Below the pieces are notes generated by a model. It was not told where the DNA came from, searched no databases, and saw only the letters and a program-made list of their open reading frames with translations. From NCBI GenBank assembly GCA_963682045.1, contig OY821326.1, positions 1,293,211-1,357,210 on the forward strand: a DNA stretch of 64,000 nt, read 5' to 3'. The translations under genes and the position numbers were made by a program. Position 1 is the first letter of the stretch. Every line of letters begins with the position of its first letter. Source of the stretch: Synergistaceae bacterium. Lineage in GTDB: Bacteria > Synergistota > Synergistia > Synergistales > Synergistaceae. Positions 5,010 through 52,065 of this stretch are shown in pieces.

Positions 5010-5660
5010 ATGAGCCCTAGATCAGATCATGAGTCAAGGTATCAGCAGCTTGCTTCAGACATAGCATCAAGGATCGCCGAGGGCAGCTATCAGGTAGGAG
5101 ATAAGATTTTCGCACGTTCTTCCCTCGCATCTCAGTACCAGGTCTCATCAGAGACAGCGAGAAAGGCAGTATGTGTGCTTGCAGAGTTAGGAATAGTCGA
5201 GGCTGAGAAAGGCAGCGGAGTCACAGTGAAGTCAAGGGAAAATGCGCTGCTCTTCATATCAAGGAAACGGGAAGCTAAGACCCTTTCGCACCTTAAAAAC
5301 AGCATCCTCGAAAAGGCAGAAAAACAAATGAATGAAATAGCAGAACTTAAGGAACAGGTAAAAATGCTTGTCGACCTGACAGAACGGTTTCGAGCAACAA
5401 ATCCTTTCATCCCCTTTGAAATCACACTGGAAGGAAACCTGCCTTCCCTTGGCAAAAAAATATCGGAACTATGCTTCTGGCAATCTACCTCTGCAACGGT
5501 TGTAGCCATAAAGAAAAAGGGAACTCTCATTCTTTCCCCAGGAGGTTCCACCTTTCTGGAAGAGGGCAACGTGCTTTATTTTGTAGGAGACGAGGGCAGC
5601 TACTCAAAGGTCAAATATTTCCTGCAAACTCTCCGGATAAAAGAGGCTTTCGATTATTAA
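5010..5660 (+). CDS. busR: BusR-type regulator: GntR-family wHTH, coiled coil and C-terminal RCK_C (TrkA-C) domain, copy 1
   Basis: 216 aa. The N-terminal GntR HTH is YQQLASDIASRIAEG...SSLASQYQVSSETARKAV. The C-terminal TrkA-C-like segment is LGKKISEL...VVAIKKKGTLILSPGG...GNVLYFVGD. It sits directly upstream of a betaine-binding protein, as lactococcal/streptococcal BusR does. Confidence 0.75.
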   Translation: MSPRSDHESRYQQLASDIASRIAEGSYQVGDKIFARSSLASQYQVSSETARKAVCVLAELGIVEAEKGSGVTVKSRENALLFISRKREAKTLSHLKNSILEKAEKQMNEIAELKEQVKMLVDLTERFRATNPFIPFEITLEGNLPSLGKKISELCFWQSTSATVVAIKKKGTLILSPGGSTFLEEGNVLYFVGDEGSYSKVKYFLQTLRIKEAFDY

Positions 5661-5719
5661 CTAAGCAAAGAAAAAAACGCCTTTTTACCTATAAATGTTA
5701 TTGATTGTTGAATTTTAGG

Positions 5720-5748
5720 TTGAAAAAGTAACAACTTTATGTAAGAAT
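5720..5748 (+). promoter_or_regulatory. putative sigma70 promoter of opuAC copy 1 with an embedded inverted repeat (candidate BusR operator)
   Basis: TTGAAA (5720-5725), 17-nt spacer, AAGAAT (5743-5748). The inverted repeat AAAGT-aaca-ACTTT (5725-5738) lies in the spacer. The block is conserved almost exactly at 9395-9423. Confidence 0.45.
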
Positions 5749-5783
5749 AGGAGTGTTGAAATCAAATAAGTGGGGGGATACTG

Positions 5784-6770
5784 ATGAATAAATCACTGAA
5801 AAGAGCTTTTTTATTTTGTCTGATTGTCATTGTTTGCGCAATGCCCGTACAGGCATTCGCTAAAACTGAGATAATCGTTACAGACAACGGATGGGACAGC
5901 CAGAAACTTCACAACGAGATAGCAAGGATAATCGTTGAGAACGCATATGACGGATATGTGCTCAAAACATCGACAGCGTCTTCAACTATGAACTGGCAGG
6001 CGATAATTGCCGGTGACGTGGATCTGGATATCGAAAGCTGGACCGACAACGTTGCTACATATCCTAAAGATGTGGCGAACGGAGATATAGTTGACGTTGG
6101 AATTTTGGCTCCGGACAGCAAGCAGGGACTCTATGTGCCAAGATACGTCATTGAAGGGGACGCCAAACGCGGCATCAAGCCTTTAGCGCCAGACCTTAAA
6201 ACAGTAAAGGATCTGGCAAAATACCACAAGATATTCCAGGATGACGAGGATAAGCGCAAGGGAAGGATCTACGGCTCCATTCCCGGATGGATGGCCGACG
6301 AGGTTCTCCATAAAAAATATGAGCTATACGGGCTAAACAAAAATTACAACTACGCGCGTCTTGGAAGCGAAGCTACTCTTTTCGCATCGCTCGTATCTGC
6401 GTACAACCTGGGCGAACCATGGGTGGGATATTGTTATGAACCTACCTGGGTCAGCGGAAAACTGGATATCGTGCTTCTTGAGGATGAACCTTACAGCAAA
6501 GAGCTTTTCGAAAAGGGAGCCTGCGCCTTCCCGTCTCAGGAGCTCAAGATCGTAAGCAGCAAATATTTTGCAAAAAAAGCGCCCGATCTGCTTGAATTCT
6601 TCAAAAAATACAGAACAGGCAGTGAACTCATGTCCGAAGCTCTGGCATATCTTGATGAGAAAAAAGTCAGCCACACGGAAGCAGCGAAATGGCTCCTCAA
6701 AACTCACCCAAACCTGCTCGACGAATGGCTGCCCAAGGAGAGAGCCGAGAGGGTAAGAGCTATTCTCTAA
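5784..6770 (+). CDS. opuAC: glycine betaine/compatible-solute ABC transporter substrate-binding protein, copy 1 (orphan)
   Basis: 328 aa with a signal peptide and an OpuAC/ProX-family sequence. It is a close paralogue of 9459..10460. It is not followed by an intact permease or ATPase. Confidence 0.8.
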   Translation: MNKSLKRAFLFCLIVIVCAMPVQAFAKTEIIVTDNGWDSQKLHNEIARIIVENAYDGYVLKTSTASSTMNWQAIIAGDVDLDIESWTDNVATYPKDVANGDIVDVGILAPDSKQGLYVPRYVIEGDAKRGIKPLAPDLKTVKDLAKYHKIFQDDEDKRKGRIYGSIPGWMADEVLHKKYELYGLNKNYNYARLGSEATLFASLVSAYNLGEPWVGYCYEPTWVSGKLDIVLLEDEPYSKELFEKGACAFPSQELKIVSSKYFAKKAPDLLEFFKKYRTGSELMSEALAYLDEKKVSHTEAAKWLLKTHPNLLDEWLPKERAERVRAIL

Positions 6771-6815
6771 GGACTTCCTTATGTAAAAAAGATACAAAAT
6801 CAGGAAAGTCTTTAA

Positions 6816-6965
6816 ATGAATTTTCTTTTCAACTTCCCCGAAAGCCTTCAAATAGGGAACGGGGAAGTTGTGGATATTTCTGTAAAAGCTTTTGGTTCAA
6901 TAAACCCTCTGTTGTACGACGTGTTGAGGATGTCCAGTAATTATTATGGGCATCTAGGCGATTAG
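6816..6965 (+). pseudogene. truncated opuAB (permease) 5' fragment
   Basis: It translates to MNFLFNFPESLQIGNGEVVDISVKAFG..., which matches the first ~27 aa of the intact permease at 10509 (MEFLYKFPESLQIGSGEAIDIAVKAFS). It then diverges and stops at 6965. Confidence 0.7.
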
Positions 6966-6978
6966 CATAGCAACGTTT

Positions 6979-7036
6979 GCTCCCTGCGGGTCATAGTTTT
7001 ACCTGGAAATGTTCAGGAGGTGGGCGTCAGTCATGT
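6979..7036 (-). pseudogene. 58-nt relic of speD coding sequence
   Basis: gctccctgcgggtcatagttttacctggaaatgttcagg... aligns with 4180-4237 inside speD (gctccctgcgggtcatagttctgcttggaaatgttcaga...) at roughly 85% identity by eye. Confidence 0.6.
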
Positions 7037-7073
7037 ACACAAATTAAGATAAAACGGAGGGGAGGTCTTTTCC

Positions 7074-7724
7074 ATGAGCCCTAAGTCAGATCATGGGTCA
7101 AGGTACCAGCAGCTTGCTTCAGACATAGCATCAAGGATCGCTGAAGGCGATTATCAGGTCGGTGATAAGATTTTCGCGCGATCCTCCCTTGCATCTCAGT
7201 ATCAGGTCTCATCAGAGACAGCAAGAAAAGCAATATGCGTGCTCGCAGAACTAGGAATAGTAGAGGCTGAAAAGGGCAGCGGAGTCACGGTAAAGTCCAG
7301 AGAGAACGCGCTGCTCTTCATATCAAGGAAACGGGAGACAAAAACTCTTTCGCACCTTAAAAACAGCATTCTCGAAAAAGCAGAAAGACAGATGGTTGAA
7401 ATAACAGAACTGAAGAAACAGGTAAAAATGCTTGTCGACCTGACAGAACGGTTTCGAGCAACAAATCCTTTCATCCCATTTGAGGTCATACTGGAAGGAG
7501 ACCTGCCCTCTCTTGGAAAGAAAGTATCTGAGCTTTGTTTTTGGCAGTCGACTTCTGCAACAGTAATAGCAATAAGAAAAAAGGGAACTCTTCTCCTTTC
7601 ACCCGGTGGCGCTACTGTACTGGAAGATGGTGACGTGCTTTATTTTGTAGGGGATGAAGGCAGCTACTCAAGAGTCAAACATTTTCTTCAAACTCTCCAG
7701 ATAAAAGAAACTTTTGATTATTAA
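7074..7724 (+). CDS. busR: BusR-type GntR/RCK_C regulator, copy 2
   Basis: 216 aa, collinear with copy 1, with mostly conservative differences. Confidence 0.75.
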   Translation: MSPKSDHGSRYQQLASDIASRIAEGDYQVGDKIFARSSLASQYQVSSETARKAICVLAELGIVEAEKGSGVTVKSRENALLFISRKRETKTLSHLKNSILEKAERQMVEITELKKQVKMLVDLTERFRATNPFIPFEVILEGDLPSLGKKVSELCFWQSTSATVIAIRKKGTLLLSPGGATVLEDGDVLYFVGDEGSYSRVKHFLQTLQIKETFDY

Positions 7725-9329
7725 CTCAAACTTCGCACATAAATAAGCTAGACAGCACCTTGACAATTCAATAATAATCGGCAAAAAAGAGCGGCATGAG
7801 CCCCGTTTTTTGGTAAAATTTAGTTACCACACTAAAACGATACCATACGGAGGTCCATGCCATGAAAAGAATATCACAGACCCTTAATTTTGACTATGAA
7901 CTTACTACTGCAACAGATGCTTTCTTCCACAGATTCAAGCTCTGCTCAGTGCTTAAGAAGGCCAATGCGTACAAGTCAAGAGGGATTCCTGCTGTGAGCG
8001 TTTTTCAAAAACTTTTCAACCTAGCTTTCAATAGCCGCAGTCTCTTTATGGAGCTGAGGACGGGAACAAATTCTTATAAAACAGGGAAAGATACCTTCTA
8101 TCGTTTCATAAATTCCTGCTCTATTAACTGGATGAAGTTTACTTCACTTCTTGCAGAAAGAATCATAAACAGCATGGTTACGAAACTCACCGATGACAAG
8201 AGAGTGAATGTATTCATCGTGGATGACACGCTGTACGAGCGAAGCCGCGCCAGAAAAGTGGAGCTAATGACTAAGGTATTTGACCATTCAAAACACAGAT
8301 ATACATCAGGGTTCCGTCTTTTGACTCTGGGCTGGAGCGACGGTAATACCTTTCTTCCTGTAAACAGCTGTCTTCTTTCCTCAGAAAAAGAGAGTTCCCG
8401 TATTCAGGAAGTAAGAGAAAAACTGGACAGACGTTCCTGCGGCTCCAGGACAAGAAAGCTGGCACAGACGAAAGCTCCGGTTGTTATGCTTGAAATGATA
8501 GATACTGCGGTCAGATCAAGAATATCAGCTTCGCACGTGCTCTTTGATTCCTGGTTCTGCTCTCCTTCCACACTGATGTCTGTTAAGGAGAGGGATATGG
8601 ACGTCATCGCAATGGCAAAGAAGACATCAAAAGTACACTACATGTACAAAGGGCAAATGCTCCCTGTAACTGAGATCTACAGAAGAAACAGAAAACGGAG
8701 GGGCAGATCCAAATATCTGCTCTCTGCAGAGATCCGAATATGCAGCAGAGACGGCAGTTGCTCGATTCCTGCCAGACTTGTATATGTCCGCAACAGAAGC
8801 AAACATAAAGATTATCTTGTCCTTATTTCGACAGATATGACCCTTTCAGAGGATGAGATCATCCGCATATATGGAAAGCGCTGGGACATAGAGGTATTCT
8901 TCAAGGTCAGCAAGACATACCTAAAACTGACAAAAGAATGCCACTCACTTTCTTACGATGCAATGACAGCATATGTAGCTGTGGTTTTTGCAAGATACAT
9001 GATGCTTGCCATAGAAAACAGGACTCGAAGAGATGAGAGGACTTTTGGTGAAATATACTGCCTTATGTCGAATGAACTCTCTGACATCACATGGCTTGAA
9101 GCTTTCAGGCTTCTGATGGAAGTATTTTTGTCGGCAGTAACCGACAAATTATCGTTGACGGATAAAAAGCTAGACATACTGCTTGAAACATTCATGGAAG
9201 CTTTGCCAGAGATGCTGAAAAACAAGCTACTCAGGTGTGCGTGAAAATGACTAAAAATAACATTCTTAATGTTCGCCGATTATTGAATTGTCAAGGTGCT
9301 ATGCACTTTATTTATGTGCGAAGTTTGAG
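7725..9329 (+). mobile_element. IS4-family insertion sequence (about 1.6 kb)
   Basis: Terminal inverted repeats: CTCAAACTTCGCACATAAATAA at 7725 and its reverse complement ending at 9329, plus a second matching block AGCACCTTGACAATTCAATAAT. The flanking 7-bp direct repeat is TTATTAA (7718-7724 and 9330-9336). It carries a single DDE transposase ORF. Confidence 0.85.
7862..9244 (+). CDS. IS4-family DDE transposase
   Basis: 460 aa. The C-terminal Y-x2-R-x3-E-x6-K signature (YGKRWDIEVFFKVSK) is typical of IS4-family transposases. Confidence 0.8.
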   Translation: MKRISQTLNFDYELTTATDAFFHRFKLCSVLKKANAYKSRGIPAVSVFQKLFNLAFNSRSLFMELRTGTNSYKTGKDTFYRFINSCSINWMKFTSLLAERIINSMVTKLTDDKRVNVFIVDDTLYERSRARKVELMTKVFDHSKHRYTSGFRLLTLGWSDGNTFLPVNSCLLSSEKESSRIQEVREKLDRRSCGSRTRKLAQTKAPVVMLEMIDTAVRSRISASHVLFDSWFCSPSTLMSVKERDMDVIAMAKKTSKVHYMYKGQMLPVTEIYRRNRKRRGRSKYLLSAEIRICSRDGSCSIPARLVYVRNRSKHKDYLVLISTDMTLSEDEIIRIYGKRWDIEVFFKVSKTYLKLTKECHSLSYDAMTAYVAVVFARYMMLAIENRTRRDERTFGEIYCLMSNELSDITWLEAFRLLMEVFLSAVTDKLSLTDKKLDILLETFMEALPEMLKNKLLRCA

Positions 9330-9394
9330 TTATTAATAAAGCACAGCAAAAAAACCTTCTTGGCTATGAAAGATATCATTTGCTGTTTTTTAGC

Positions 9395-9423
9395 TTGAAA
9401 AAGTAACAACTTTATGTGAGAAT
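9395..9423 (+). promoter_or_regulatory. putative promoter of opuAC-opuAB-opuAA with the same embedded inverted repeat as copy 1
   Basis: TTGAAA (9395-9400), 17-nt spacer containing AAAGTaacaACTTT (9400-9413), then GAGAAT (9418-9423). Confidence 0.45.
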
Positions 9424-9458
9424 AGGGAGGTTACTATAAGACTAATAGGAGGGTTCAG

Positions 9459-10460
9459 ATGAATAAAACAATAACAAAAGGTGTACTTTTACTTTTTTTG
9501 ATGGTCTTTGTTTGTGCAATGCCAATACAGGCACTAGCTAAAACGGAGACAACAGAGATCGTGATAACGGATAATGGGTGGGACAGCCAGAAGCTTCACA
9601 ACGAAATAGCCAGATTGATCGTTGAGAATGCCTATGATGGTTACGTCATAAAAACGTCGACAGCTTCTACAACCATGAACTGGCAGGCAATAATTGCCGG
9701 AGACGTGGACCTGGATATCGAAAGCTGGACTGACAACTTTGCCACATATCCTAAAGACGTTGCAAACGGAGACATTGTGGATGTCGGAATTTTAGCTTCG
9801 GACGGTAAGCAGGGGCTTTATGTTCCAAGATACGTCATCGAAGGAGATGCCAAACGTGGTATCAAACCTTTAGCTCCTGACCTTAAAACAGTAAAGGATC
9901 TGGCAAAATACTACAGGGTATTCCAGGATGACGAGGATAAGAACAAGGGAAAGATCTACGGCGCCATTCCCGGATGGCTGGCTGACGGAATACTCCATAG
10001 CAAATATGAGCTTTACGGGCTGGACAAAAATTACAACTACGCACGTCTTGGAAGCGAAGCCACCATTTTTGCCACCCTCGTTTCGGCATACAACCTCGGA
10101 GAACCATGGGTAGGATATTGTTATGAACCTACCTGGGTCGCAGGAAAACTGGATATCGTACTTCTTAAGGACGAACCCTACACCACCCAAGAGATTTACT
10201 TAAAGGGAGGCAGCGAATTCCCATCCCAGGAGCTTAAGATAGTGAGCAGCAAATATTTTGCAAAGAAAGCTCCTGATCTGCTTGAGTTCTTCAAAAAATA
10301 CAAAACAGGCAGCAAGCTGATATCCAAAGCGCTGGCATATCTTGACGAGAAAAAAGTCAGTCACACGGAAGCTGCGAAATGGCTGCTTAAGACCAACGAT
10401 GACCTGCTTGACCAATGGCTGCCCAAAGAAAGGGCAGATAGAGTGAGAGCCATTCTCTAA
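9459..10460 (+). CDS. opuAC: glycine betaine/compatible-solute ABC transporter substrate-binding protein, copy 2
   Basis: 333 aa with a signal peptide, OpuAC/ProX family. It is followed by the permease and ATPase genes. Confidence 0.85.
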   Translation: MNKTITKGVLLLFLMVFVCAMPIQALAKTETTEIVITDNGWDSQKLHNEIARLIVENAYDGYVIKTSTASTTMNWQAIIAGDVDLDIESWTDNFATYPKDVANGDIVDVGILASDGKQGLYVPRYVIEGDAKRGIKPLAPDLKTVKDLAKYYRVFQDDEDKNKGKIYGAIPGWLADGILHSKYELYGLDKNYNYARLGSEATIFATLVSAYNLGEPWVGYCYEPTWVAGKLDIVLLKDEPYTTQEIYLKGGSEFPSQELKIVSSKYFAKKAPDLLEFFKKYKTGSKLISKALAYLDEKKVSHTEAAKWLLKTNDDLLDQWLPKERADRVRAIL

Positions 10461-15381: not shown

Positions 15382-16182
15382 TTATGACTGACTGGCTTTC
15401 TTCAGATCATCAAGATTCCCGCCTCTTCTTACCGCTATGATCTCGGCAAGGACAGAAACAGCGATCTCTTCGGGAGTCTCCGCTTTTATCGGAAGTCCTA
15501 TAGGCTGGTGTATCCGGTCAAGATGTTCCTGCGATACACCTCTTGCAACAAGCATCTTCCTCAACGCTGCTATTTTTGAGCGCGAACCTATCATCCCATA
15601 ATATGCTCCGGGCTTTTTATCCGTTATCGCCACAGCCTCTGCATCCAGGGCATGTCCTCGGGTCACTATGACGACATAACTTCTCTCGTGGAGAGTTATC
15701 CCTTTTTCGTATATATCACCGATAGGACAGACGATCGTACGAGCGCAGGGGATATTTTCGCTGTTAGCGTACTCTTCCCTCTCGTCCCATACCGTGACCC
15801 TGAATCCTGCAAAAGCCCCGACCTCGGCAACAGCCTTTCCCACATGTCCGGCACCAAGGATCACAAGTTCATCTTCCCTTCCTATCACTTCCATATAGAT
15901 CGTTGCTGAACCTCCGCAGAGCATTCCGTCTTTCTCTGTAAGCTCCTTCTTCCATACGAGCACTGTATCACCTGAAGCTAGAAGTTCCCTAGCTTTTTTG
16001 ATCGTTTCAAATTCTAAGAGTCCCCCGCCGATAGTACCGCTGATGCTGCCATCCTTGTACACCCACATGGAAGCGCCTTTGCTCCTGGGGGTCGATCCGG
16101 ATTCCTCGGTAACTGTGCAAAGCACACCGTAGTCACCGGCTTCGACCTCTCTGCTTATTAGGGCCAAAAGATCTCTGTTCAT
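15382..16182 (-). CDS. xdhC: XdhC/CoxI-family molybdoenzyme maturation protein
   Basis: 266 aa collinear with XdhC and with the N-terminal half of E. coli YqeB (VLCTVTEESGSTPRSKGA..., ILGAGHVGKAV, GMIGSRSKI, IGLPIKAETPEEIAVSVLAEI). Confidence 0.8.
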   Translation of the reverse strand: MNRDLLALISREVEAGDYGVLCTVTEESGSTPRSKGASMWVYKDGSISGTIGGGLLEFETIKKARELLASGDTVLVWKKELTEKDGMLCGGSATIYMEVIGREDELVILGAGHVGKAVAEVGAFAGFRVTVWDEREEYANSENIPCARTIVCPIGDIYEKGITLHERSYVVIVTRGHALDAEAVAITDKKPGAYYGMIGSRSKIAALRKMLVARGVSQEHLDRIHQPIGLPIKAETPEEIAVSVLAEIIAVRRGGNLDDLKKASQS

Positions 16183-16255: not shown

Positions 16256-17302
16256 TCAGCTTCCTGCCGCGAAAGAGCACGAAGGATAATGGCAGGTCGG
16301 GCAGTGTTCGCAAAGTCCTCCCACGCCCCATCTTCGTACAAGGTCGCCGGGCTCTATACCTGCAAAGACAAAGGGCAGGAGTTTATCCAGCGCTGTCCTC
16401 TCATCAAAAGCAACACAGGCAGGTGCGCCTATGACCGCTACATCTTCTCCATCGATGGGCGACTTGGCGTAACCCAGCATAAGCATGGCACCCGGCAGGG
16501 CGGGAGATCCCTGGAAAGAAATCTTCCTGCAGACAGAACGGATAGCTCCGGGTGTTCTGTCATCCGCGTCCACACTCATCCCCCCCGTACAGATTATCAC
16601 TTTGGCACCCTCATTTAGGAATTTACTGATCGCATCGGCTATCTGTTCAAGAGAATCAGTGCAGAATGCCTGCCCTATAACGCTGCCGCTGAGCCTGCTC
16701 AGTTTTTCATCAAGCTTTGGCCTGAAAGCATCATGCACCCTTTTGTCAACTATCTCTTTGCCTGTGGTCACGACAGCTACTTTGAGATCCCTGAAGGGCA
16801 GCACAGCAAAAGGCCTGCTTCCTCTCACTGCCGCAACGGCACGTTCGACCCTGTAGTCTTCCATCACAAGGGGTCTTATGCGAAAGCCAGCGACCATCTG
16901 CCCCTTCAGCACAGGACGGTGAGGCGCCAGTGCAGAAAGTACCCAGTCTGGATCCTGATTCACCCTGTTGACTGTCTCTGCAAGGTACCATAGTATGCCT
17001 GAACTTGTCGCAACAAGATTGCAGCGCCCCTCTTCTGGAGGCGTAATCCTTAAGTTCTCTCCGCAGAGCACCTCTGCGAGCTGCATAGCAGCGTCATCTT
17101 CATGAACTTCCCCGGGAGACATTTCCATTACAGAGAGGTTTTCCCTTCCCATGTCTTTCAGTGTGGGAATATCTTCTTTTGTAATGACCTGGCCTTTTTT
17201 GAAACGGGCAGATTTAATGTGGTTTACCGCGTCTATCTGTGTAAGGTCATGTGCAAGAGGCCTGCCAATGGCTCCTTCAAGCGGGATCACTGTTATCTTC
17301 AT
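16256..17302 (-). CDS. MoCF-biosynthesis (MoeA/MogA-like) domain protein with a Cys-rich C-terminal tail
   Basis: The domain core is molybdopterin-binding-like (VAVVTTGKEIV...VIICTGGMSVDADD). The C-terminus is CEHCPTCHYPSC. I prefer the ATG at 17302 (GGAGG RBS), 2 nt after the stop of the Fur-family gene. Confidence 0.6.
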   Translation of the reverse strand: MKITVIPLEGAIGRPLAHDLTQIDAVNHIKSARFKKGQVITKEDIPTLKDMGRENLSVMEMSPGEVHEDDAAMQLAEVLCGENLRITPPEEGRCNLVATSSGILWYLAETVNRVNQDPDWVLSALAPHRPVLKGQMVAGFRIRPLVMEDYRVERAVAAVRGSRPFAVLPFRDLKVAVVTTGKEIVDKRVHDAFRPKLDEKLSRLSGSVIGQAFCTDSLEQIADAISKFLNEGAKVIICTGGMSVDADDRTPGAIRSVCRKISFQGSPALPGAMLMLGYAKSPIDGEDVAVIGAPACVAFDERTALDKLLPFVFAGIEPGDLVRRWGVGGLCEHCPTCHYPSCSFAAGS

Positions 17303-17304
17303 GT

Positions 17305-17727
17305 TTATCTGGCCTCCGTTTCGGGGCTGCATTCACTGCAGCACCCATATACAACAAGCTGTTTGCCTTCAACGGTCATACCCTCGGGAACCTCGACCCG
17401 GGGAAGCCGCTGATCTGTAAGACAAAACATTTTTCCGCAGTGAAGACAAAGAAAATGGGGATGATCCCCGGGACAGCCCTTTGACTCCGGATCATGGGCG
17501 CAAAAGCGCCATACTCCGTCCAGCCCCTGGACCTGGTGTACAATGCCCGCGGCTTTAAGGGTCTGCAGGGTCCTGTACAGCGTGACCTTATCAAGCGATT
17601 CGATAAGGGTAGAGGATATCTCGCTATGAGAGAGAGGGGAACCTTTTTCCACCAAAAGCCGCAGTACGAGCTTTCTCTGATGTGTGGCTCTCAGTTTTGC
17701 AACGCTAAGTATTTTTTCAACGTTCAA
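17305..17727 (-). CDS. Fur-family transcriptional regulator
   Basis: 140 aa with a wHTH (ATHQRKLVLRLL...VTLYRTLQTL), a His-rich site (DHPHF) and two CxxC pairs (CLHC, CSEC). TTG start with an AAGGGGTGG RBS. Confidence 0.8.
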   Translation of the reverse strand: MNVEKILSVAKLRATHQRKLVLRLLVEKGSPLSHSEISSTLIESLDKVTLYRTLQTLKAAGIVHQVQGLDGVWRFCAHDPESKGCPGDHPHFLCLHCGKMFCLTDQRLPRVEVPEGMTVEGKQLVVYGCCSECSPETEAR

Positions 17728-17751
17728 AAAACCACCCCTTAAATATTAAAC

Positions 17752-17764
17752 GCAACCAATTTGC
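17752..17764. promoter_or_regulatory. GCAAC-N3-TTTGC near-palindrome upstream of the Fur-family operon
   Basis: cGCAACcaaTTTGCa matches 10 of 12 positions of the TGCAAC-N3-GTTGCA motif seen at 28094, 31565 and 50078. It lies about 10 nt upstream of the RBS. Confidence 0.35.
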
Positions 17765-18017
17765 ATTTTAATGCATTCCATCTGAGCCTGCAAGGTTTTT
17801 CTATAACCACATCTGATCTAAAACATTTTACTTTCATATTTTCCATAAATAAACAAAATTTATTTTAGTTTGTTTTCAGCAAATTGATCGTTAATTAACT
17901 TTGGATTCATGATAGAAATAATTATAATATTAACCACATTTACCTATTAACATTGTTTTTTATAATATTGCCAATGACGGTGACCTGCAGATAGTCATTT
18001 TTTTAACAAACGAATGG

Positions 18018-18046
18018 TTGACATTTATCGTATATGGTCGTATTAT
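18018..18046 (+). promoter_or_regulatory. sigma70-type promoter of the ilv-leu operon
   Basis: TTGACA (18018-18023), 17-nt spacer, TATTAT (18041-18046). Confidence 0.6.
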
Positions 18047-18112
18047 GTCGCCCATTACGTCAGGCCATAGCACCCGGCGAGCAGGCCAAAACCTCGAAAG
18101 GTGGGACATAAA

Positions 18113-18208
18113 ATGCGAATAGACAGTTTGATCCGTGACATATTTAGTCTGGTTCTTGTACTAGTACTTCTTATTAGCAGTGGGTCCCCCGAGGTGGCCG
18201 ACGCTTAA
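18113..18208 (+). CDS. ilv-leu leader peptide (31 aa, rich in Leu/Val/Ile)
   Basis: The AAAGGTGGG RBS precedes ATG 18113. The peptide is MRIDSLIRDIFSLVLVLVLLISSGSPEVADA, with nine consecutive branched-chain codons at 18149-18175. It is followed by alternative hairpins and a terminator. Confidence 0.65.
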   Translation: MRIDSLIRDIFSLVLVLVLLISSGSPEVADA

Positions 18209-18227
18209 ACGTCGTGTTACTTTCGGA

Positions 18228-18259
18228 CCGGGACCCTTCAAGGGTCCCGGTTTTTTTTT
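18228..18259 (+). terminator. attenuator terminator upstream of ilvN
   Basis: ccgggaccct / agggtcccgg stem followed by nine T (18251-18259). GGGTCCC at 18182-18188 can pair with the 5' arm GGGACCC (18230-18236) as an antiterminator. Confidence 0.7.
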
Positions 18260-18291
18260 GTCTCTATCATCAACATACAGGAGGACATGAT

Positions 18292-27942: not shown

Positions 27943-28005
27943 GAGTAGAAGCTCCAACGAAAATTTCTCCTGTTATTTCTATGATAAACATACTTACAAT
28001 TTAAA

Positions 28006-28046
28006 GGGGATGCCTGTATTACTGGCATCTCCTCTTTATTTTTGCT
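28006..28046 (+). terminator. putative terminator after ilvD
   Basis: ggggatgcc / ggcatctcc stem (one mismatch), followed by TCTTTATTTTTGCTTTT. Confidence 0.5.
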
Positions 28047-28093
28047 TTTAATCAAACTTTATTCAGCAAATATAAACTTAAACGCCAACATAA

Positions 28094-28132
28094 TGCAACA
28101 TTGTTGCAAAACAAACCATGCTAATTTATAAT
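28094..28132 (+). promoter_or_regulatory. modA promoter with an overlapping perfect palindrome TGCAAC-ATT-GTTGCA
   Basis: The palindrome spans 28094-28108. The -35 TTGCAA (28104-28109), a 17-nt spacer and the -10 TATAAT (28127-28132) follow, so the right half-site overlaps the -35. Confidence 0.55.
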
Positions 28133-28169
28133 TGCCTAATCTAAGTTCAATCATGTCAGGAGGATCATT

Positions 28170-28994
28170 ATGAATATATTTAAAAGGTTATGCAATAGTA
28201 TTTTTACCATCGTTATTTGCGCAGTAATAGCTTTATCCATACCGGCAACAGCTTTTGCCCAGACAGAACTGACCGTATTTGCAGCAGCTTCCATGACAGA
28301 ATCAATGAAATTGGTTGCCGACCAATATAAAAAAACAGCCCCGGACGTTAAAATTATATATAATTTCGACTCCAGCGGTACGCTAAAAACTCAGATAGAA
28401 CAAGGTGCTTTTTGTGATGTTTTTGTTTCAGCAGGACAAAAACAGATGGATCAGTTAGACATAAACGCAAACCCCAAGGTCAATACGAAAAAGCTGGACT
28501 TTATAATGACTGGGACTCGATTCAATGTTGTCTCTAACAAAGTTGTACTCGTAGTTCCCAAAGGACACAACTCCAAGGGAATCAGTGATTTCAAAGATAC
28601 GCTGACCGATAAAGTTTTTATTATTGCACTCGGGAACTCAGATGTTCCTGTCGGCCAATACTCGGAAGAAGTTCTGAAGAGCCTTGGCATTTGGGATAAG
28701 CTAAAGAAAATGAATAAGATAAGCTACGGCAGCAACGTAAAAGAAGTACTTTCGCAAGTTGCTGCAGGAGCAGCTGACTGCGGAATGGTTTACAGTACGG
28801 ATGCTGCTACATCTAATGCGGTAGAAGTTGTTGCAGAGGCTCCCAAGGGCACGCACAGACCAATAACTTATCCTGTCGCTATTTTAAAAGAGACCCAAAA
28901 CCTCGAAGCAGCTACTGCATTTACCAATTTTCTTAAGGGGCCGGAGAGTATAAAGATTTTTACTGGAATCGGCTTTGCAATACCAAGCAAATAA
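28170..28994 (+). CDS. modA: molybdate ABC transporter substrate-binding protein
   Basis: 274 aa with a signal peptide and ModA-like sequence (LTVFAAASM...FDSSGTL...VPVGQY). Confidence 0.85.
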   Translation: MNIFKRLCNSIFTIVICAVIALSIPATAFAQTELTVFAAASMTESMKLVADQYKKTAPDVKIIYNFDSSGTLKTQIEQGAFCDVFVSAGQKQMDQLDINANPKVNTKKLDFIMTGTRFNVVSNKVVLVVPKGHNSKGISDFKDTLTDKVFIIALGNSDVPVGQYSEEVLKSLGIWDKLKKMNKISYGSNVKEVLSQVAAGAADCGMVYSTDAATSNAVEVVAEAPKGTHRPITYPVAILKETQNLEAATAFTNFLKGPESIKIFTGIGFAIPSK

Positions 28995-29079
28995 CGCAAT
29001 CCGATTAGAAAAAAATTCAAAAAGTGGCCATTCCGAAAACGGTCTGGCCACCTTTTGAATTACTGGATAGGGGTAAGAC

Positions 29080-29778
29080 ATGGACTGGTTTCCTCTTTAT
29101 AATTCGTTGCGCGTAGCATCGATCTCAACATTTATAACATTTTTCCTCGGAATATTTGCCGCGCACTACATTGCAAAAACACCTCGTTTTATCAAAGGAA
29201 TACTTGATGGCATTCTGACTTTACCTCTGGTTTTACCTCCTACTGTAATTGGATTTTTTCTGTTAAATATAATAGGCCCTCTGGGACCGGTGGGTTCGCG
29301 AGTTCTTGAGGTATTTGGCTTTAAATTGACGATGACATGGTATTCGGCTGTTTTTGCAACAACAATAATTTCCTTTCCCCTGATCTATCGTACAGCACGC
29401 GGCGCGTTTGAATCATTTGACAGTACACTGCTCTACTCAGGACAAACTCTCGGATTATCGAATACCTTCCTATTCTGGCGGGTCGTGATGCCTAACTGCA
29501 AACAGGGAATCCTGGCTGGCGCAGTTCTTGCTTTTGCGCGTGCGCTTGGAGAGTTCGGAGCTACAACCATGGTCTCAGGCTATATTCCAGGCAGAACCGC
29601 AATAATATCTACAACTGTATACCAACTTTGGAGAGAAGGAAACGATGCTCTTGCCTATAAGTGGGTATTTATAAATCTTATAATCTCGTTTATGGTATTA
29701 GTAACAGTAAACATGCTCGAAAATCGTTATAAACAGCCCATTGGGGCAGCGAAAGATCATTTTGAGCATGAAGATTAG
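29080..29778 (+). CDS. modB: molybdate ABC transporter permease
   Basis: 232 aa, CysTW/ModB-type permease (ARALGEFGATTMVSG). Confidence 0.85.
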   Translation: MDWFPLYNSLRVASISTFITFFLGIFAAHYIAKTPRFIKGILDGILTLPLVLPPTVIGFFLLNIIGPLGPVGSRVLEVFGFKLTMTWYSAVFATTIISFPLIYRTARGAFESFDSTLLYSGQTLGLSNTFLFWRVVMPNCKQGILAGAVLAFARALGEFGATTMVSGYIPGRTAIISTTVYQLWREGNDALAYKWVFINLIISFMVLVTVNMLENRYKQPIGAAKDHFEHED

Positions 29779-29786
29779 GGGTAAAA

Positions 29787-30857
29787 ATGTCAATATACGT
29801 TAAAATAATTAAATCGTTCGGTAATTTTGTCCTTAATACCGAATTTGAAGCGGAAAATGAGATCCTGGCTCTCCTGGGGTCTTCAGGTTCCGGCAAAAGC
29901 ATGACGTTGAAATGCATAGCCGGCATAGTCAAACCGGATAAAGGATGTATCGTTGTAGACGGCGTAACATTGTTTGATTCAGATAAGAAGATCAACCTGA
30001 GCCCTCAGGAAAGACATGTCGGACTGCTTTTCCAAAACTACGCCCTTTTTCCTAATATGACGGTGGAACAGAATCTTTATACCGTTCTGAAAAACTGTAA
30101 TGGTCAAAAGAACACAAAAGAACGGTTAGACCTCCTTCTGGAAAGTTTTTATTTAACAGGACTTGAAAAACATTATCCCGGACAGCTTTCAGGAGGGCAG
30201 CAGCAGCGTGTCGCACTTGCCAGGATCATGGCAAGCAGCCCCCAAATTATAATGCTCGATGAACCATTATCCGCACTTGACAGTTACCTGCGGTGGCAGG
30301 TGGAAAGGGAGCTTTCGGAAATCCTGGGCAAATTTAAAGGAACAACGCTTTATGTTTCCCATAATCGTGATGAAGTTTATAGGTTATGCCAGAAGGTATG
30401 TGTCATAAACAAAGGACATTCTGAAAAGGTAAATTCGGTCGACGAATTCTTCAATTCTCCATCAACACTAGCGTCAGCTTTGTTATCGGGATGCAAAAAC
30501 TACTCAAAAGCAGAAAAACTATCTCATAACACTGTGCATGCTTTCGACTGGAAGGTTAACTTAAGGTGTGATACCTTTATACCTGATGATACGAAATATA
30601 TTGGCGTACGTGCTCATAGAATTCTTCCTTTTCGCATGGGTGATGAATGCCAAAACAAAGTTATTTGCCGCGTACTTGAGGTCAGACATGATCTCTTTTC
30701 CGTTATTATTACACTAACACCTCAGGACGCTGATCCCAAAAAAGAATTTTCTCAAATTAGAATGGAACTGCCTTCTATTGAGAATAATTCTGTTCAGCCG
30801 GGAGATATTATGGCAGTAAACATCCCTACTGATATGATTATGCCCTTAAGAAAATAA
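29787..30857 (+). CDS. modC: molybdate ABC transporter ATP-binding protein with a C-terminal TOBE-like domain
   Basis: 356 aa with Walker A GSSGSGKS, signature LSGGQQQR and Walker B IMLDEPLSALD, plus a C-terminal ~120-aa extension. Confidence 0.8.
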   Translation: MSIYVKIIKSFGNFVLNTEFEAENEILALLGSSGSGKSMTLKCIAGIVKPDKGCIVVDGVTLFDSDKKINLSPQERHVGLLFQNYALFPNMTVEQNLYTVLKNCNGQKNTKERLDLLLESFYLTGLEKHYPGQLSGGQQQRVALARIMASSPQIIMLDEPLSALDSYLRWQVERELSEILGKFKGTTLYVSHNRDEVYRLCQKVCVINKGHSEKVNSVDEFFNSPSTLASALLSGCKNYSKAEKLSHNTVHAFDWKVNLRCDTFIPDDTKYIGVRAHRILPFRMGDECQNKVICRVLEVRHDLFSVIITLTPQDADPKKEFSQIRMELPSIENNSVQPGDIMAVNIPTDMIMPLRK

Positions 30858-31289
30858 GCATATTTCACCATGCCACATAAGAACAGCCCAAGAATTTATC
30901 TGCACTCCCAAAATCAGGCTTGTTGGTAATTGAGACAAAAAACCCCGAACGATTTCAGCAGCTTGTTCAGGTTGAAGCCGCAGGATGCCACCAAGGCCGT
31001 TTATTTCATTCCACGATTCTGTCACTTTTCTTCGTTTGAACCTTTTATTCTGAGCCGCTGTGGCTTGCAACTTTGCTCCTGGGATAAAAACTTTATATTG
31101 CAGGTTTTCATGTAACTTTTTACTCCTGTATCCTTTGTCGCAGTAAACGTCTTCCTGACAGCGGCCAGCCATTTCCTCCATCCGGTTCAGTGTGTCCGGC
31201 GGTGCGGTGACGTCATTCGGTGATCCCTTGTATCTCCTTGCTCCAGGTGCCCAATTGCCTTTCAGGATCGTTACTGATGCATTCAGCAA
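30846..31289 (-). pseudogene. DDE transposase C-terminal remnant (IS5/IS1182-like)
   Basis: The 147-aa ORF contains a DKGY motif and a degenerate downstream block. It has no N-terminal catalytic region and I found no inverted repeats. It abuts and overlaps the modC stop. Confidence 0.45.
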
Positions 31290-31549: not shown

Positions 31550-31561
31550 ACTTGCAACACT

Positions 31562-31584
31562 TAGATGCAACTTGGTTGCATCTA
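31562..31584. promoter_or_regulatory. perfect 10+3+10 palindrome TAGATGCAAC-TTG-GTTGCATCTA at the predicted start of the pruA transcript
   Basis: Read directly from the sequence. The core GCAAC-N3-GTTGC is shared with the modA, tup and Fur-operon sites. It may act as an operator or as a 5' stem-loop. Confidence 0.5.
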
Positions 31585-31608
31585 AAAAATATCAAGGGGG
31601 TTTTTGGT

Positions 31609-33240
31609 TTGAGCAACGCACTTTTTAGTTATGAAAAACCGTTTAATGATGTATCCAGAGATTATGCTCCGGGATCAATGGATAGAAAACTTCTAAAAGA
31701 AGCCATTGATGAAATATCTTCTAATGTCGCAGAAATACCTCTAATAATAGGCGGAGAAGAAATCTTTACAGGAAACACAGGCAATGTCGTTATGCCTCAC
31801 GATTACAAACACAGGCTGGCAGTCTATCACAAAGCAGGAAGTGCGGAAATGGAAATGGCCATCAAGGCGGCCCTTGATGCCCACAATAAATGGGCGGGCA
31901 TATCTTACACCGATCGCGCTGCGATAATTATGAAAATAGCGGAACTGATAAAAACAAAATATCGCTACATATTAAACGCAGCTACTATGATGGGGCAAAG
32001 CAAGAATGTATGGCAGGCTGAAATAGAATCGGCAAGCGAAACCATAGATTATTTCCATTATGCAGTCCATTATATGAGTGAAATTTATAAAAATCAGCCG
32101 TCATCAGAAAGTGGGGTTATTAACTGCATTGAATACAGACCTCTTGAAGGCTTTGTTTACGCAGTATCTCCGTTCAATTTCACTGCTCTCGCAGCAAACC
32201 TCCCGATGGCTCCCGTTCTGATGGGAAACACTGTGGTATGGAAACCGGCAACTACGTCTCTGCTGTCAAGCTATTACCTGATGAAGATTTATGCAGAAGC
32301 GGGCCTGCCTGCAGGCGTTTTAAACTTCATGCCGGGGCCGGGATCGGTAGGAAGCAAAGTCGTTCTGAACCATAAAGACCTGGCTGGGATACACTTTACT
32401 GGCTCGACACAGGTTTTCAATGGTCTGTGGAAGGGAATAGCTGAAAACCTGAATACATATAAGTCGTATCCTCGTTTAGTTGGGGAAACAGGTGGCAAAA
32501 ATTTCGTTTTCATGCATAATTCCGCAGATGCAACAGAGGTTACAACTGCGCTGGTAAGAGGCGCTTTTGAATATCAGGGACAGAAATGCTCTGCAACATC
32601 GCGCTGCTATATTCCAGCCAGCCGCTGGAATGAAGTGAAAACTGAGCTGGATACAATGATGGCAACCGTAAAAACAGGAGATCCGCGTGATTTCCGTAAT
32701 TTTGTAAATGCAGTCATTGACGAAGATTCTTTTGAAAATTGCATGAAATATATAGATTATGCAAAAAAATCACACGAAGCAGAAATACTTTATGGCGGCT
32801 CGGGGGATAAAAGCGTAGGATATTTTGTCCAGCCTACAATTATCAAAACAAACAACCCGCACTTCCTGACAATGGAAGAAGAAATATTCGGTCCGGTACT
32901 TACCCTCTTCGTTTATGAAGATGACAAATTTGAAGAAATGACGGAGATCTGCAATAATACGTCTCCATATGCATTGACCGGCAGTTTCTTCGCAAAGGAC
33001 CGTGCAGCAATAAGAAAATCACATGAAACACTGAAATACGCAGCAGGCAATTTCTACATAAACGACAAAACGACAGGAGCCTGTATAGGACTGCAGCCGT
33101 TCGGCGGCGGGCGGGCATCAGGGACAAATGACAAGGCCGGGAGCCAGTTGAACCTCTTAAAATGGGTTTCCCCGAGGACAATAAAAGAAATCCTTATGCC
33201 GCCGCGTTGGTATTCATATCCTTTTATGGAAGATAAATAA
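31609..33240 (+). CDS. pruA: L-glutamate gamma-semialdehyde (1-pyrroline-5-carboxylate) dehydrogenase
   Basis: Aldehyde dehydrogenase family with P5CDH-type motifs (GETGGKNF, EYQGQKCSA). I prefer the TTG at 31609 behind the AAGGGGG RBS. The track ORF begins at 31552, inside the palindrome. Confidence 0.8.
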   Translation: MSNALFSYEKPFNDVSRDYAPGSMDRKLLKEAIDEISSNVAEIPLIIGGEEIFTGNTGNVVMPHDYKHRLAVYHKAGSAEMEMAIKAALDAHNKWAGISYTDRAAIIMKIAELIKTKYRYILNAATMMGQSKNVWQAEIESASETIDYFHYAVHYMSEIYKNQPSSESGVINCIEYRPLEGFVYAVSPFNFTALAANLPMAPVLMGNTVVWKPATTSLLSSYYLMKIYAEAGLPAGVLNFMPGPGSVGSKVVLNHKDLAGIHFTGSTQVFNGLWKGIAENLNTYKSYPRLVGETGGKNFVFMHNSADATEVTTALVRGAFEYQGQKCSATSRCYIPASRWNEVKTELDTMMATVKTGDPRDFRNFVNAVIDEDSFENCMKYIDYAKKSHEAEILYGGSGDKSVGYFVQPTIIKTNNPHFLTMEEEIFGPVLTLFVYEDDKFEEMTEICNNTSPYALTGSFFAKDRAAIRKSHETLKYAAGNFYINDKTTGACIGLQPFGGGRASGTNDKAGSQLNLLKWVSPRTIKEILMPPRWYSYPFMEDK

Positions 33241-49675: not shown

Positions 49676-49846
49676 CTCTTAAATTAAAAACCGGATTTAC
49701 ATCTGAACTTCTACTCAAAATCAAACCTTTTCCAATGATATTATAGCAGGAGGATGCATAAAAACCATTTCAAACTGCATGAGCACTTATGAACAAAATA
49801 CTTGTTTTTTTACCAGCCAACATGTAGGATAGCAAAAGTAATCGAT

Positions 49847-49932
49847 TGTTCTCCGAGCCTGTCCGCCTAAAGATATTATCCACGGGGGCCGGGCCGTTAG
49901 GGTTTCGCTGGAAACGGTGGAGCCTCCCTTTG
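49847..49932 (+). promoter_or_regulatory. Moco-class riboswitch-like aptamer (copy 1)
   Basis: P1 is gttctcc/ggagaac. It carries a 5' CCGAGCC and a 3' GGAGCCUCCC-UUU-GGAAAGGAG block, as I recall for the Moco RNA motif. It lies upstream of tungstate transporter genes. Confidence 0.6.
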
Positions 49933-49949
49933 GAAAGGAGAACGGCTGT

Positions 49950-49990
49950 CTGTATTTTATTCGGCCGTCTTCTCCAGTGAGGACGGCCGA
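49950..49990 (+). terminator. intrinsic terminator of riboswitch copy 1
   Basis: cggccgtc / gacggccg stem followed by ATTTCTGTTTTT. The 5' arm can alternatively pair with the P1 3' strand. Confidence 0.65.
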
Positions 49991-50033: not shown

Positions 50034-50060
50034 TGCGAGATCGCCCCCAACGATCTCGCA
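50034..50060 (+). terminator. second terminator-like hairpin in the tup leader
   Basis: tgcgagatcg cccccaa cgatctcgca, a perfect 10-bp stem followed by TCTTCATTATTT. Confidence 0.4.
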
Positions 50061-50077
50061 TCTTCATTATTTATAAC

Positions 50078-50092
50078 TGCAATCAAGTTGCA
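50078..50092. promoter_or_regulatory. TGCAAT-CAA-GTTGCA near-palindrome in the tup leader
   Basis: Matches 11 of 12 positions of the TGCAAC-N3-GTTGCA motif. It lies between the two riboswitch-like elements. Confidence 0.4.
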
Positions 50093-50189
50093 AATAATAG
50101 TAAGTTTTCTTTTTTTCTCTTAAATTCACGACAAAAACAATTAAATAGTGTAGAATTACGTCTATGCCATATATTTTACTTTTATGGTT

Positions 50190-50313
50190 TTTGTCTCCTG
50201 ATCAAATCAAGAGACGACCCTGAATCTGTTTTTCCTGTAGCGCCTGCTATGGAAAACAGACGTTAGGGCGGATCTGGAAACGGATCCGTCTCCCATTGTG
50301 GAAAGGGGGCAAA
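50190..50313 (+). promoter_or_regulatory. Moco/Tuco-class riboswitch-like aptamer (copy 2, diverged)
   Basis: The 3' half aligns with copy 1 (cgttaggg...ctggaaacgg...gtctccc...gtggaaaggggg). P1 is tttgtctcc/gggggcaaa with two GU pairs. The 5' half differs and lacks CCGAGCC. It lies about 100 nt upstream of tupA. Confidence 0.45.
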
Positions 50314-50409
50314 TATTTCGCCACGTGCGATATCAATATCAATGCCCTCCTATTCTTCAAGGTCTCAAGGTTTTTAGCACCAATATATCTTTTAAGGAGG
50401 AGTATCCCC

Positions 50410-51261
50410 ATGAAAAGCAACAAGCGCTTCTTACTTTTCATCACCATCATTGCAGTATGCATGCTCACTTTGGGCTCATTTGCATACGCCAAACCGCCAG
50501 TTCTCAGAATGGCAACAACTACCAGCACCGACAATACAGGCCTTCTCGATTATATGGCTCCTATCCTGCTGAAGGATACAGGGATCGAGATCCAGTGGGT
50601 ATCCGTTGGAACAGGAAAGGCGCTTGAATACGGGCGTAACGGAGATGTTGACGTAGTCCTTACCCATGATCCGGCAGCCGAAGACAAGTTTATGGCAGAC
50701 GGCGCAGGTGTTAACCGACGTAAGGTCATGTACAACGACTTCGTACTGATCGGCCCCGCAAACGACCCGGCAGGTATAAAGGGCAAACCCATAACCCAGG
50801 CGATTGCGACAATAGCCGCGAAGGGACAGCCTCTCGTGAGCCGCGCGGACAAATCCGGCACACATTCAGCAGAACTTAAGCTTCTCAAAGCGGCCGGAGT
50901 CAAAAATTTCGACAAGGCGACCTGGTATGTACAGACAGGACAGGGAATGCTCAATACGATCAACATCGCTGATGAACGCAAGGGATACGCACTTGCTGAC
51001 AGAGGCACATTCATTAAATATGACGCAAATCTCAAAGGCAAACCGGGGCTCGTTATAGTAGTAGAGGGAGACAAACAGCTCCTAAACATGTACAGTGTTA
51101 TGGCTGTCAACCCTATCAAACACCCGCATGCAAAGTACGACCTTGCGATCAAGTACATCGACTGGATCACCTCTTCAAAGGTCCAGAAGGATATCGCAAA
51201 CTTCAAGCTTGAAGGCAAGCAGCTCTTCTTCCCCAACGCCGAAATCAGATCCGGACACTAG
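50410..51261 (+). CDS. tupA: tungstate ABC transporter substrate-binding protein
   Basis: 283 aa from ATG 50410 (AAGGAGG RBS) with a signal peptide and a TupA-type motif (RMATTTSTDNTGLLD). The longer track ORF extends into the leader RNA. Confidence 0.8.
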   Translation: MKSNKRFLLFITIIAVCMLTLGSFAYAKPPVLRMATTTSTDNTGLLDYMAPILLKDTGIEIQWVSVGTGKALEYGRNGDVDVVLTHDPAAEDKFMADGAGVNRRKVMYNDFVLIGPANDPAGIKGKPITQAIATIAAKGQPLVSRADKSGTHSAELKLLKAAGVKNFDKATWYVQTGQGMLNTINIADERKGYALADRGTFIKYDANLKGKPGLVIVVEGDKQLLNMYSVMAVNPIKHPHAKYDLAIKYIDWITSSKVQKDIANFKLEGKQLFFPNAEIRSGH

Positions 51262-51332
51262 GCTATCTTATATTATTCGACTGGACCGGGTCCCGCCGTC
51301 AGGACCCGGCCTGATTTTAAGGAGGGTACCGG

Positions 51333-52031: not shown

Positions 52032-52065
52032 GAAAAAATATTTAACATACTACGGAGGAAACTCA

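Follow-up and report, generated by a model that had tools for sequence, protein, structure and literature searches.

In a stretch of 64,000 nt from a Synergistaceae bacterium (the window, meaning the whole stretch of DNA that was analysed), a palindromic element, TGCAAC-N3-GTTGCA, recurs upstream of the molybdate transporter genes modABC, the tungstate transporter genes tupABC, the gene pruA, and an operon that encodes factors of molybdenum cofactor (Moco) maturation together with a protein of the Fur family. We propose, with a probability of about 0.7, that this palindrome is the operator of a distinct Fur subfamily, whose local member (17305-17727, minus strand) would repress molybdate and tungstate (Mo/W) uptake, Moco maturation and pruA. 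The parts of this proposal differ in strength: the box is very probably a real operator, its binding by the Fur-like protein is probable, and a Mo/W-related effector falls slightly short of even odds. A first-pass annotation of the window had suggested that one dimeric regulator, possibly the local Fur-family protein, co-controls Mo/W uptake and cofactor maturation, and this suggestion is supported by phylogenetic footprinting and by the linkage of the regulator to mod genes; we infer binding of the box by the Fur-like protein, its action as a repressor, and a signal that reports Mo/W (or Moco) status.

All four sites of the first-pass annotation were recovered by a pattern scan where that annotation had placed them, and the genes of the window were mapped by Pfam and NCBIfam scans (50 open reading frames by Pfam). 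The perfect pattern TGCAACNNNGTTGCA is present at 28094-28108 and 31566-31580, TGCAATCAAGTTGCA with one mismatch at 50078-50092, and CGCAACCAATTTGCA with two mismatches at 17751-17765. The modA copy (TGCAAC-ATT-GTTGCA) overlaps, as had been stated, the -35 element of the modA promoter, TTGCAA(28104)-17-TATAAT(28132), a plus-strand site at 28104-28132 with 10/12 matches that is the sole promoter-like site in the modA intergenic region. The genes modA, modB and modC (28170-30857, plus strand) were assigned to a molybdate ABC transporter by Pfam, and NCBIfam TIGR01256 (modA) is matched with 174 bits against a cut-off of 62.5. The pruA copy (TGCAAC-TTG-GTTGCA) lies between the -10 element and the ribosome binding site, downstream of the promoter TTGACT(31521)-17-TATCAT(31549). 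Its perfect core had been described as part of a 23-bp palindrome; the core stands, whereas the whole is better read as an 11-3-11 palindrome at 31561-31585, one pair longer, and this 23/25-bp extension is particular to the window, the copies of other species having 6 bp and a 3-nt loop. The downstream gene (31609-33240, plus strand) encodes L-glutamate gamma-semialdehyde (pyrroline-5-carboxylate, P5C) dehydrogenase, with 739 bits to NCBIfam TIGR01236 (cut-off 614) and a Pfam Aldedh domain. The copy in the tup leader (TGCAAT-CAA-GTTGCA) precedes tupA, tupB and tupC (50296-53094, plus strand), which were assigned to a tungstate ABC transporter by Pfam; the NCBIfam TupA score of 320 bits is under the cut-off of 400.

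The fourth site reads TGCAAA-TTG-GTTGCG on the minus strand and is located 24 nt before the TTG start of the Fur-family gene, where it appears to abut a TTGCAG-17-TAAAAT promoter. The gene (17305-17727, minus strand; 140 aa; Pfam FUR, E=1e-11) has a 28-nt overlap with that of a 358-aa MoCF_biosynth-domain protein (16256-17332, minus strand; Pfam), and the third gene (15382-16182, minus strand) encodes an XdhC-family Moco insertion/maturation factor with Pfam domains XdhC_CoxI and XdhC_C and an NCBIfam XdhC_rel_AOR score of 256 bits, below the cut-off. The XdhC, MoCF_biosynth and Fur-family genes form one overlapping minus-strand operon, divergent from an ilv/leu operon.

Taken by itself, the window does not prove a regulon, and the within-window statistics are weak. 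The earlier argument that two perfect copies against 0.01 expected can hardly be due to chance holds for a pre-specified pattern only and is overstated post hoc: the window contains 26 perfect palindromes of the 6-3-6 type, and ~7% of Markov-1 random 64-kb sequences show some recurring half-site. Nor do the near copies add the evidence attributed to them, since six matches at up to two mismatches were found where 2.7 are expected, and a count of six was attained in 6 of 100 shuffles; taken alone in the window, they are not significant. The same scan additionally gives a coding match at 17009-17023 and a weak intergenic match at 55356 (TGCAAGGATGTGGCA), which was not counted as a site, having 12.2 bits only.

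The box is regarded as real because it is conserved across species at orthologous promoters, and chance was rejected only after this footprinting, which the first-pass annotation had recommended for the mod and tup promoters. In the relatives, whose loci are numbered L### here and among which the closest species representative is Synergistaceae bacterium UBA6101 (ModA 92% identical), conserved copies of the box precede modA, tupA, pruA and the Fur-MoCF_biosynth-XdhC operon. Over 24 sites from orthologous promoters the consensus is yGCAAy-N3-GTTGCr, with GCAA (positions 2-5) and TTGC (positions 11-14) invariant, G10 in 22/24 sites and a free spacer. The modA box is situated on the -35 element in L001 and L002 (CGCAAC-AGT-GTTGCA), in L004 (CGCAAC-CGC-GTTGCA) and also in L115, and it precedes modA in L087 and L122 too. 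Homologues of the Fur-like protein are common in Synergistaceae, and the gene order Fur-MoCF_biosynth-XdhC is kept in L081-L086, with the boxes TGCAAT-AAA-GTTGCA (L081 and L082), TGCAAA-TCT-GTTGCG (L083 and L084), TGCAAT-TAT-GTTGCA (L085) and TGCAAT-GCA-ATTGCG (L086). At tupA, TGCAAT-NNN-GTTGCA with the spacers TAA, CAA, TGG and AGA was found in the metagenomic loci L088, L089, L090/91, L092 and L096, in each of which it is the only match of at least 14 bits; it is also the main conserved block when the window tup region is aligned with the 73%-identical L096.

Boxes between the -10 element and the ribosome binding site of pruA were identified in L115, in L118 (a perfect copy), in L116 (Cloacibacillus, with T/G variants) and in L117 (Synergistes jonesii, two copies). 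In L117, pruA is located beside a modC/modA/modB/modD-like cluster, where ModD was assigned from a QRPTase-domain match. From its promoters, pruA, boxed in four genera or lineages, is a predicted conserved member of the regulon and its most widely conserved target. A recent insertion of pruA was considered, L001 being without pruA between modC and citF while the window has a transposase fragment there (30846-31289, minus strand); it was rejected, as L115 has the order ilvD-modABC-pruA-citF without the fragment and boxed pruA occurs in other contexts too. Upstream of the ABC ATPase gene heading the mod-like cluster of L117 (taken as modC), at ~2745-2775, a TGCAAC-N8-GTTGCA element overlaps TATAAT; it is possibly a variant of the operator, or else a pair of half-sites displaced by half a turn of the helix. 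In the modA promoter of L003, a direct repeat GGTTGCGT-N5-GGTTGCGT (530-565) is situated on the -35 element and in the spacer of a TATAAT promoter; its units resemble half-sites and are arranged in direct, not inverted, orientation.

Scoring by weight matrices was used to assess specificity. A first matrix, trained on nine modA and fur sites, gives five window matches of at least 16 bits where 0.04-0.1 would be expected, and three of the five (pruA, tup and 17009) were absent from the training set. At a threshold of 17.5 bits the same matrix finds one match in 1.19 Mb of unrelated modA loci versus five in the window. With a second matrix, built from the 24 sites, five window sites reach at least 17.6 bits and the next best has 13.2 bits. 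Four of the five matches are intergenic (p = 0.0014), the intergenic share of the window being 13%. The box is also the sole match in 16 kb of 65% GC DNA (L122) and in 7 kb of L119. The fifth window match, inside the MoCF_biosynth gene (17009-17023, minus strand; 18.1 bits), is probably a coding coincidence, because it encodes the in-frame codons C-N-L-V-A and is broken by synonymous changes in relatives: copies of this type are present at L081 10786, L082 10776 and L085 10773, with synonymous changes (TGT, GTC) that break the box in L085 and L082.

The assignment of the box to the Fur-like protein is based on their linkage. Only one of the four target units of the window encodes a DNA-binding protein according to profile scans, and the box precedes the Fur-like gene or its operon in every lineage examined (window, L081-L087, L119, L120, L122), spanning at least three phyla-level groups. 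In a Spirochaetales metagenome-assembled genome (L119, 51% identity), a perfect TGCAAC-AAT-GTTGCA is found ~35 nt before the Fur-like gene, and in L120 (54% identity) TGCAAC-TTA-ATTGCA lies between the Fur-like gene and a divergent ABC importer. In L087 (60% identity), a perfect box is followed by the operon modA-modB-modC-MoCF_biosynth-Fur-DUF364-moaA-moaC-MOSC-MoCF. In L122 (59% identity, 65% GC), the box stands after a TTGACT-17-TATGGT promoter and before modA-modA-modB-modC-MoCF_biosynth-Fur, an operon that adjoins a Mo hydroxylase, XdhC and a MocA-like gene. In addition, a 398-aa protein from a 2.5-kb contig of a JGI metagenome (P0243) contains a Fur-like domain and a ModA-type lipoprotein in one frame, with the signal/lipobox mid-protein; it may be a genuine fusion, or the product of two adjacent genes between which the stop was lost.

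Beside the Fur subfamily gene and box of L119, a duplicated ABC ATPase and two unannotated small proteins are encoded at 4801-7371. The importer of L120 (6779-7822), like L119 from a lineage outside Synergistaceae, is of the Peripla_BP_2/FecCD type. Its best PDB matches are iron-complex binding proteins, and the molybdate-binding protein MolA is matched only in part, which leaves a MolA-type reading ambiguous.

The 17305-17727 protein was found to belong to the Fur family, with a winged-helix N-domain and a C-terminal dimerisation domain (PF01475 fold). Its Pfam FUR score is 45.5 bits against a cut-off of 23.1 (E=1e-11), its AF2 model has a pLDDT of 91.7, and the top Foldseek matches are all Fur/Zur/PerR/Mur with a probability of 1.00, although Foldseek against the PDB does not discriminate among Fur, Zur, PerR and Mur. 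A sequence search of the PDB gave 13 matches of Fur/Zur/PerR type at E<=0.01, with no Nur chain among them. No named Fur/Zur/PerR/Irr group fits, all NCBIfam equivalogs scoring 26-45 bits versus cut-offs of 146-220. The subfamily is small (37 clusters at 50% identity with E<=1e-30, then a score gap) and has the signature VHxVQGxDGxWRFCAH...GCPGxHPHFLCxxCG with a GCPGxHPHF core. A structural Cys4 site, C94-x2-C97 plus C130-x2-C133, is invariant or nearly so in 28 homologues; H64, D70, H78, C85, H89 and H91 are invariant in the subfamily alignment, and C76 and C102 nearly so. Judged from these alignments, the protein appears to represent a distinct Fur subfamily with extra invariant Cys/His residues.

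The tup copy had been described as lying between two riboswitch-like elements, and both proved to be Rfam Moco riboswitches (RF01055, gathering score 36): Moco or tungsten cofactor (Tuco) riboswitch 1 at 49839-49956 (plus strand, 75.2 bits) and riboswitch 2 at 50206-50324 (plus strand, 56.3 bits), the latter located immediately ahead of the annotated start of tupA or overlapping it. The palindrome is part of neither aptamer, and the riboswitches are a separate, RNA-level control of tup. The site follows two terminator-like hairpins and precedes a weak promoter-like site (50128-50156) by ~36 nt. These hairpins, at 49961-49990 and 50034-50060, come after the first of the two tandem aptamers upstream of tupA; the arrangement of tandem aptamers with the protein box in between is kept in L088-L092.

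In the proposed mechanism, a dimer would bind the 15-17 bp inverted repeat yGCAAy-N3-GTTGCr, with one winged helix per GCAA/TTGC half-site. The positions of the sites are of the repressor type, on the -35 element at modA and at or just after the -10 element at pruA and the own operon. The bound dimer would block RNA polymerase at the modABC -35 element, at the start region of pruA and at the start region of its own Fur-MoCF_biosynth-XdhC operon, the last being a case of autoregulation; in the tup leader, the site may act as an upstream operator or as a roadblock, layered on the Moco/Tuco riboswitches. By analogy with other Fur-family proteins, the ligand-bound form would be the repressor: molybdate/tungstate uptake and Moco maturation would be turned down when the signal is plentiful and derepressed, together with pruA, when it is scarce. 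Since repression of two oxyanion importers and of Moco maturation would be sensible only if the signal reports Mo/W or Moco status, a Mo/W effector is suggested. A cofactor-sparing role of pruA, by which the NAD-dependent aldehyde dehydrogenase would be used when Mo/W aldehyde oxidoreductases are without cofactor, is offered by analogy and only as a hypothesis. It is speculative: we know of no Mo/W enzyme acting on glutamate semialdehyde, and none was identified in this analysis.

A fuller version of this scheme, tentative and in our judgement well below even odds, would make the protein the first Fur-family sensor of Mo/W status, perceiving the metal, a thio-form or the pterin cofactor via the extra Cys/His site. 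It would then be a ModE-independent repressor of modABC and tupABC beside the Moco riboswitches, autoregulating the Moco-maturation operon and having a cofactor-sparing PruA arm, in Synergistota, Spirochaetota and other anaerobes.

Several observations weigh against the proposal of a Mo/W-responsive Fur-like repressor. One Synergistaceae modA promoter (L003) is without the box, and at tupA the box is present in one clade only and absent from other lineages. The position of the tup site is not the classical one of a repressor, and to our knowledge pruA has no link to Mo/W. The distant homologues in L119 and L120 adjoin transporters of undefined substrate. In the protein sequence, the Cys/His-rich sensor residues seem better suited to a thiophilic cation than to an oxyanion, and the sole published use of the box, in Desulfovibrio, is at a presumed zinc transporter; together, the sensor residues and this precedent suggest a thiophilic cation such as Zn.

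A rival explanation keeps the same Fur-like protein and operator and makes the protein a Zur-type sensor of zinc or another thiophilic cation, the Mo/W genes and pruA being a cation regulon. In its favour, the box does not differ from the one predicted for Desulfovibrio ZUR_D at znuABC-zur, and the PDB matches include Zur structures. The invariant Asp/Cys/His residues, along with an E-to-C change 8 residues past the first CxxC, resemble, in our reading, the regulatory sites of the Escherichia coli and Streptomyces coelicolor Zur proteins; the same residues are invariant in homologues unlinked to mod genes. However, no zinc-related gene carries the box in any locus examined, three independent architectures place the regulator within modABC/Moco operons, and we know of no rationale or precedent for zinc-dependent repression of molybdate/tungstate uptake; we consider zinc sensing unlikely, though a serious contender. 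Less probable still is that the operator is genuine and bound by an unlinked factor, for example a ModE-like or other dimeric regulator encoded elsewhere, the Fur-like gene being merely one of the targets. The assignment to the Fur-like protein is made by co-localisation only, and other candidate regulators may be encoded outside the stretches examined; yet wherever the Fur-like gene was inspected, at 51%-98% identity and 47%-65% GC, the box is found with it, and an unlinked factor would need to be present in all these lineages. ModE boxes of the E. coli type, which are TATAT-rich, are moreover absent from the modA promoter, and no ModE-type gene is present in the window. This explanation is therefore regarded as improbable.

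Two further explanations deny that the palindromes are DNA operators. They could be RNA hairpins, acting as stabilisers or attenuators in the 5' untranslated regions: transcription probably includes the copies at pruA, fur and tup, the window pruA copy would give an 11-bp stem, and the T/G variants of L116 still pair as G-U. Against this, the modA copies of the window and of L001, L002, L004 and L115, five Synergistaceae species in all, are located on the -35 element and precede the transcript; the half-sites are invariant rather than covarying, the stem extension is not shared by the 6-bp, 3-nt-loop copies of the others, and no T-run follows on the sense strand, which makes RNA hairpins very improbable. 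The odds that a -35-like palindrome recurred by chance in intergenic DNA that is AT-rich are next to nil. The post hoc recurrence rate of ~7%, the lack of enrichment of near copies and the -35-like character of TTGCAA would all fit it, but it is contradicted by the footprinting of four orthologous promoters with variable spacers, including 65% GC DNA, and by the gap between the five window sites and the next best score.

The other elements of the window include a ~190-nt leader (18018-18260) that follows the near-consensus promoter TTGACA-17-TATTAT (18018-18046) and ends in a GACCCTTCAAGGGTC hairpin (18232-18246) before ilvN; similar sequence is present in L081 and L083. A T-box was considered for this leader and rejected for want of an Rfam match, and attenuation by a leader peptide, or an RNA element not yet described, could account for the leader. 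At 4735-4793 (minus strand), the Rfam SpF59/ldcC RNA motif (54 bits) is located upstream of a polyamine operon for AdoMet decarboxylase, Orn/Lys/Arg decarboxylase, spermidine synthase and an agmatinase-like protein. The region 5010-10460 contains a duplicated pair of a GntR-HTH/TrkA_C regulator and an OpuAC-type binding protein (5010-6770; 7074-7724 and 9459-10460), and a DDE transposase (7862-9244) interrupts the second pair. Two more transposase genes or fragments are present at 30846-31289 and 57703-59466.

A Fur-family regulator dedicated to Mo/W uptake and to Moco maturation would add a new signal to those ascribed to the family (Fe, Zn, Mn, Ni, peroxide and haem). It would also explain how trace metals are controlled in anaerobes that have no ModE, among them the Synergistaceae, an abundant group of digesters and guts. 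At the tup operon, control by a protein would be superimposed on control by riboswitches in a form open to testing, and the conservation of the pruA site suggests that Mo/W supply is tied to the metabolism of amino-acid aldehydes in a way not recognised so far. Were zinc the signal, control of both molybdate and tungstate transport by Zur would still be unexpected.

Among known systems, the established protein regulator of molybdate uptake is ModE, the only protein molybdate sensor named in a 2024 metallostasis review (PMC11672702), with the operator ATCGnTATATA-N6-TATATAnCGAT (PMC545781). In E. coli, Rhodobacter and others, ModE is likewise a repressor at the modABC promoter combined with Moco riboswitches (PMC11672702). 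ModE consists of a LysR-type HTH and Mop/TOBE domains that bind molybdate directly, whereas the regulator described here is of another family and has another operator; the ModE operator is absent from the modA upstream region 27943-28169, which was read directly, and a ModE protein (HTH and two Mop/TOBE domains) was not found among the 50 window open reading frames scanned with Pfam. Control of Mo/W uptake in anaerobes by non-ModE, lineage-specific proteins has also been proposed for the mod genes of Desulfovibrio, in the form of integrase-domain/Mop regulators encoded by a chimeric gene (PMC545781). These have an unrelated fold and operator, and carry the Mop oxyanion-binding domains that the Fur-like protein is without. 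The Desulfovibrio regulator of this type was later named TunR.

The closest likeness is found within the Fur family itself. The first-pass annotation had seen no resemblance of the palindrome to the E. coli ModE operator or to Fur/Zur/PerR or NrdR boxes, which is correct for ModE and incorrect for Fur/Zur: the box is the 17-bp palindrome ATGCAACnnnGTTGCAT of ZUR_D (PMC545781), and its core fits the Nur box (PMC2691836). Previously, ATGCAACnnnGTTGCAT was predicted upstream of znuABC-zur_D in D. vulgaris and D. desulfuricans and assigned, on purely computational grounds, to an atypical Fur-family protein (ZUR_D) encoded in the same operon (Rodionov et al. 2004, Genome Biol 5:R90, PMC545781). The pruA site matches ATGCAACnnnGTTGCAT at 17/17 positions and the modA site at 16/17. 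The two systems share the box sequence and the position of the box before an operon encoding a Fur-family regulator, a likeness of box and operon context, and they differ in their targets, which are znuABC (presumed zinc uptake) for ZUR_D and modABC, tupABC, Moco-maturation genes and pruA in the window. No ZnuA/TroA-type gene is located next to any box in the window or in the loci of relatives examined. A Mo/W-dedicated regulator with this box would suggest a fresh look at the 2004 'Zur' assignment in Desulfovibrio.

The second precedent is the Nur box of Streptomyces coelicolor, tTGCaa-N5-ttGCAA, a 6-5-6 element bound by a Fur-family dimer (An et al. 2009, NAR, PMC2691836). It shares the GCAA-N5-TTGC core with all 24 sites described here, and the non-conserved centre distinguishes both from n-1-n Fur boxes. 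Unlike the Nur box, the present sites keep the inner C6 and G10 (6-3-6 reading), and their outer T/A is only partly kept. The regulator is not a close relative of Nur and its predicted targets are Mo/W genes rather than nickel genes, although Nur also controls a cofactor-alternative enzyme (sodF). The Desulfovibrio and Nur precedents strengthen the Fur-family assignment. Cofactor-sparing branches are known from the Zur, Fur and Nur regulons, where they include Zn-independent ribosomal paralogues, flavodoxin and Fe-SOD (PMC545781), and they provide a possible, if speculative, rationale for pruA as an NAD-dependent enzyme derepressed when the metal cofactor is scarce. A literature search gave no description of a Fur-family Mo/W regulator and no relevant later work on the Desulfovibrio box. 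The Fur-family box has been predicted once before, and what is new here is its link to a proposed regulon of Mo/W, Moco and pruA genes and to a distinct Fur subfamily.

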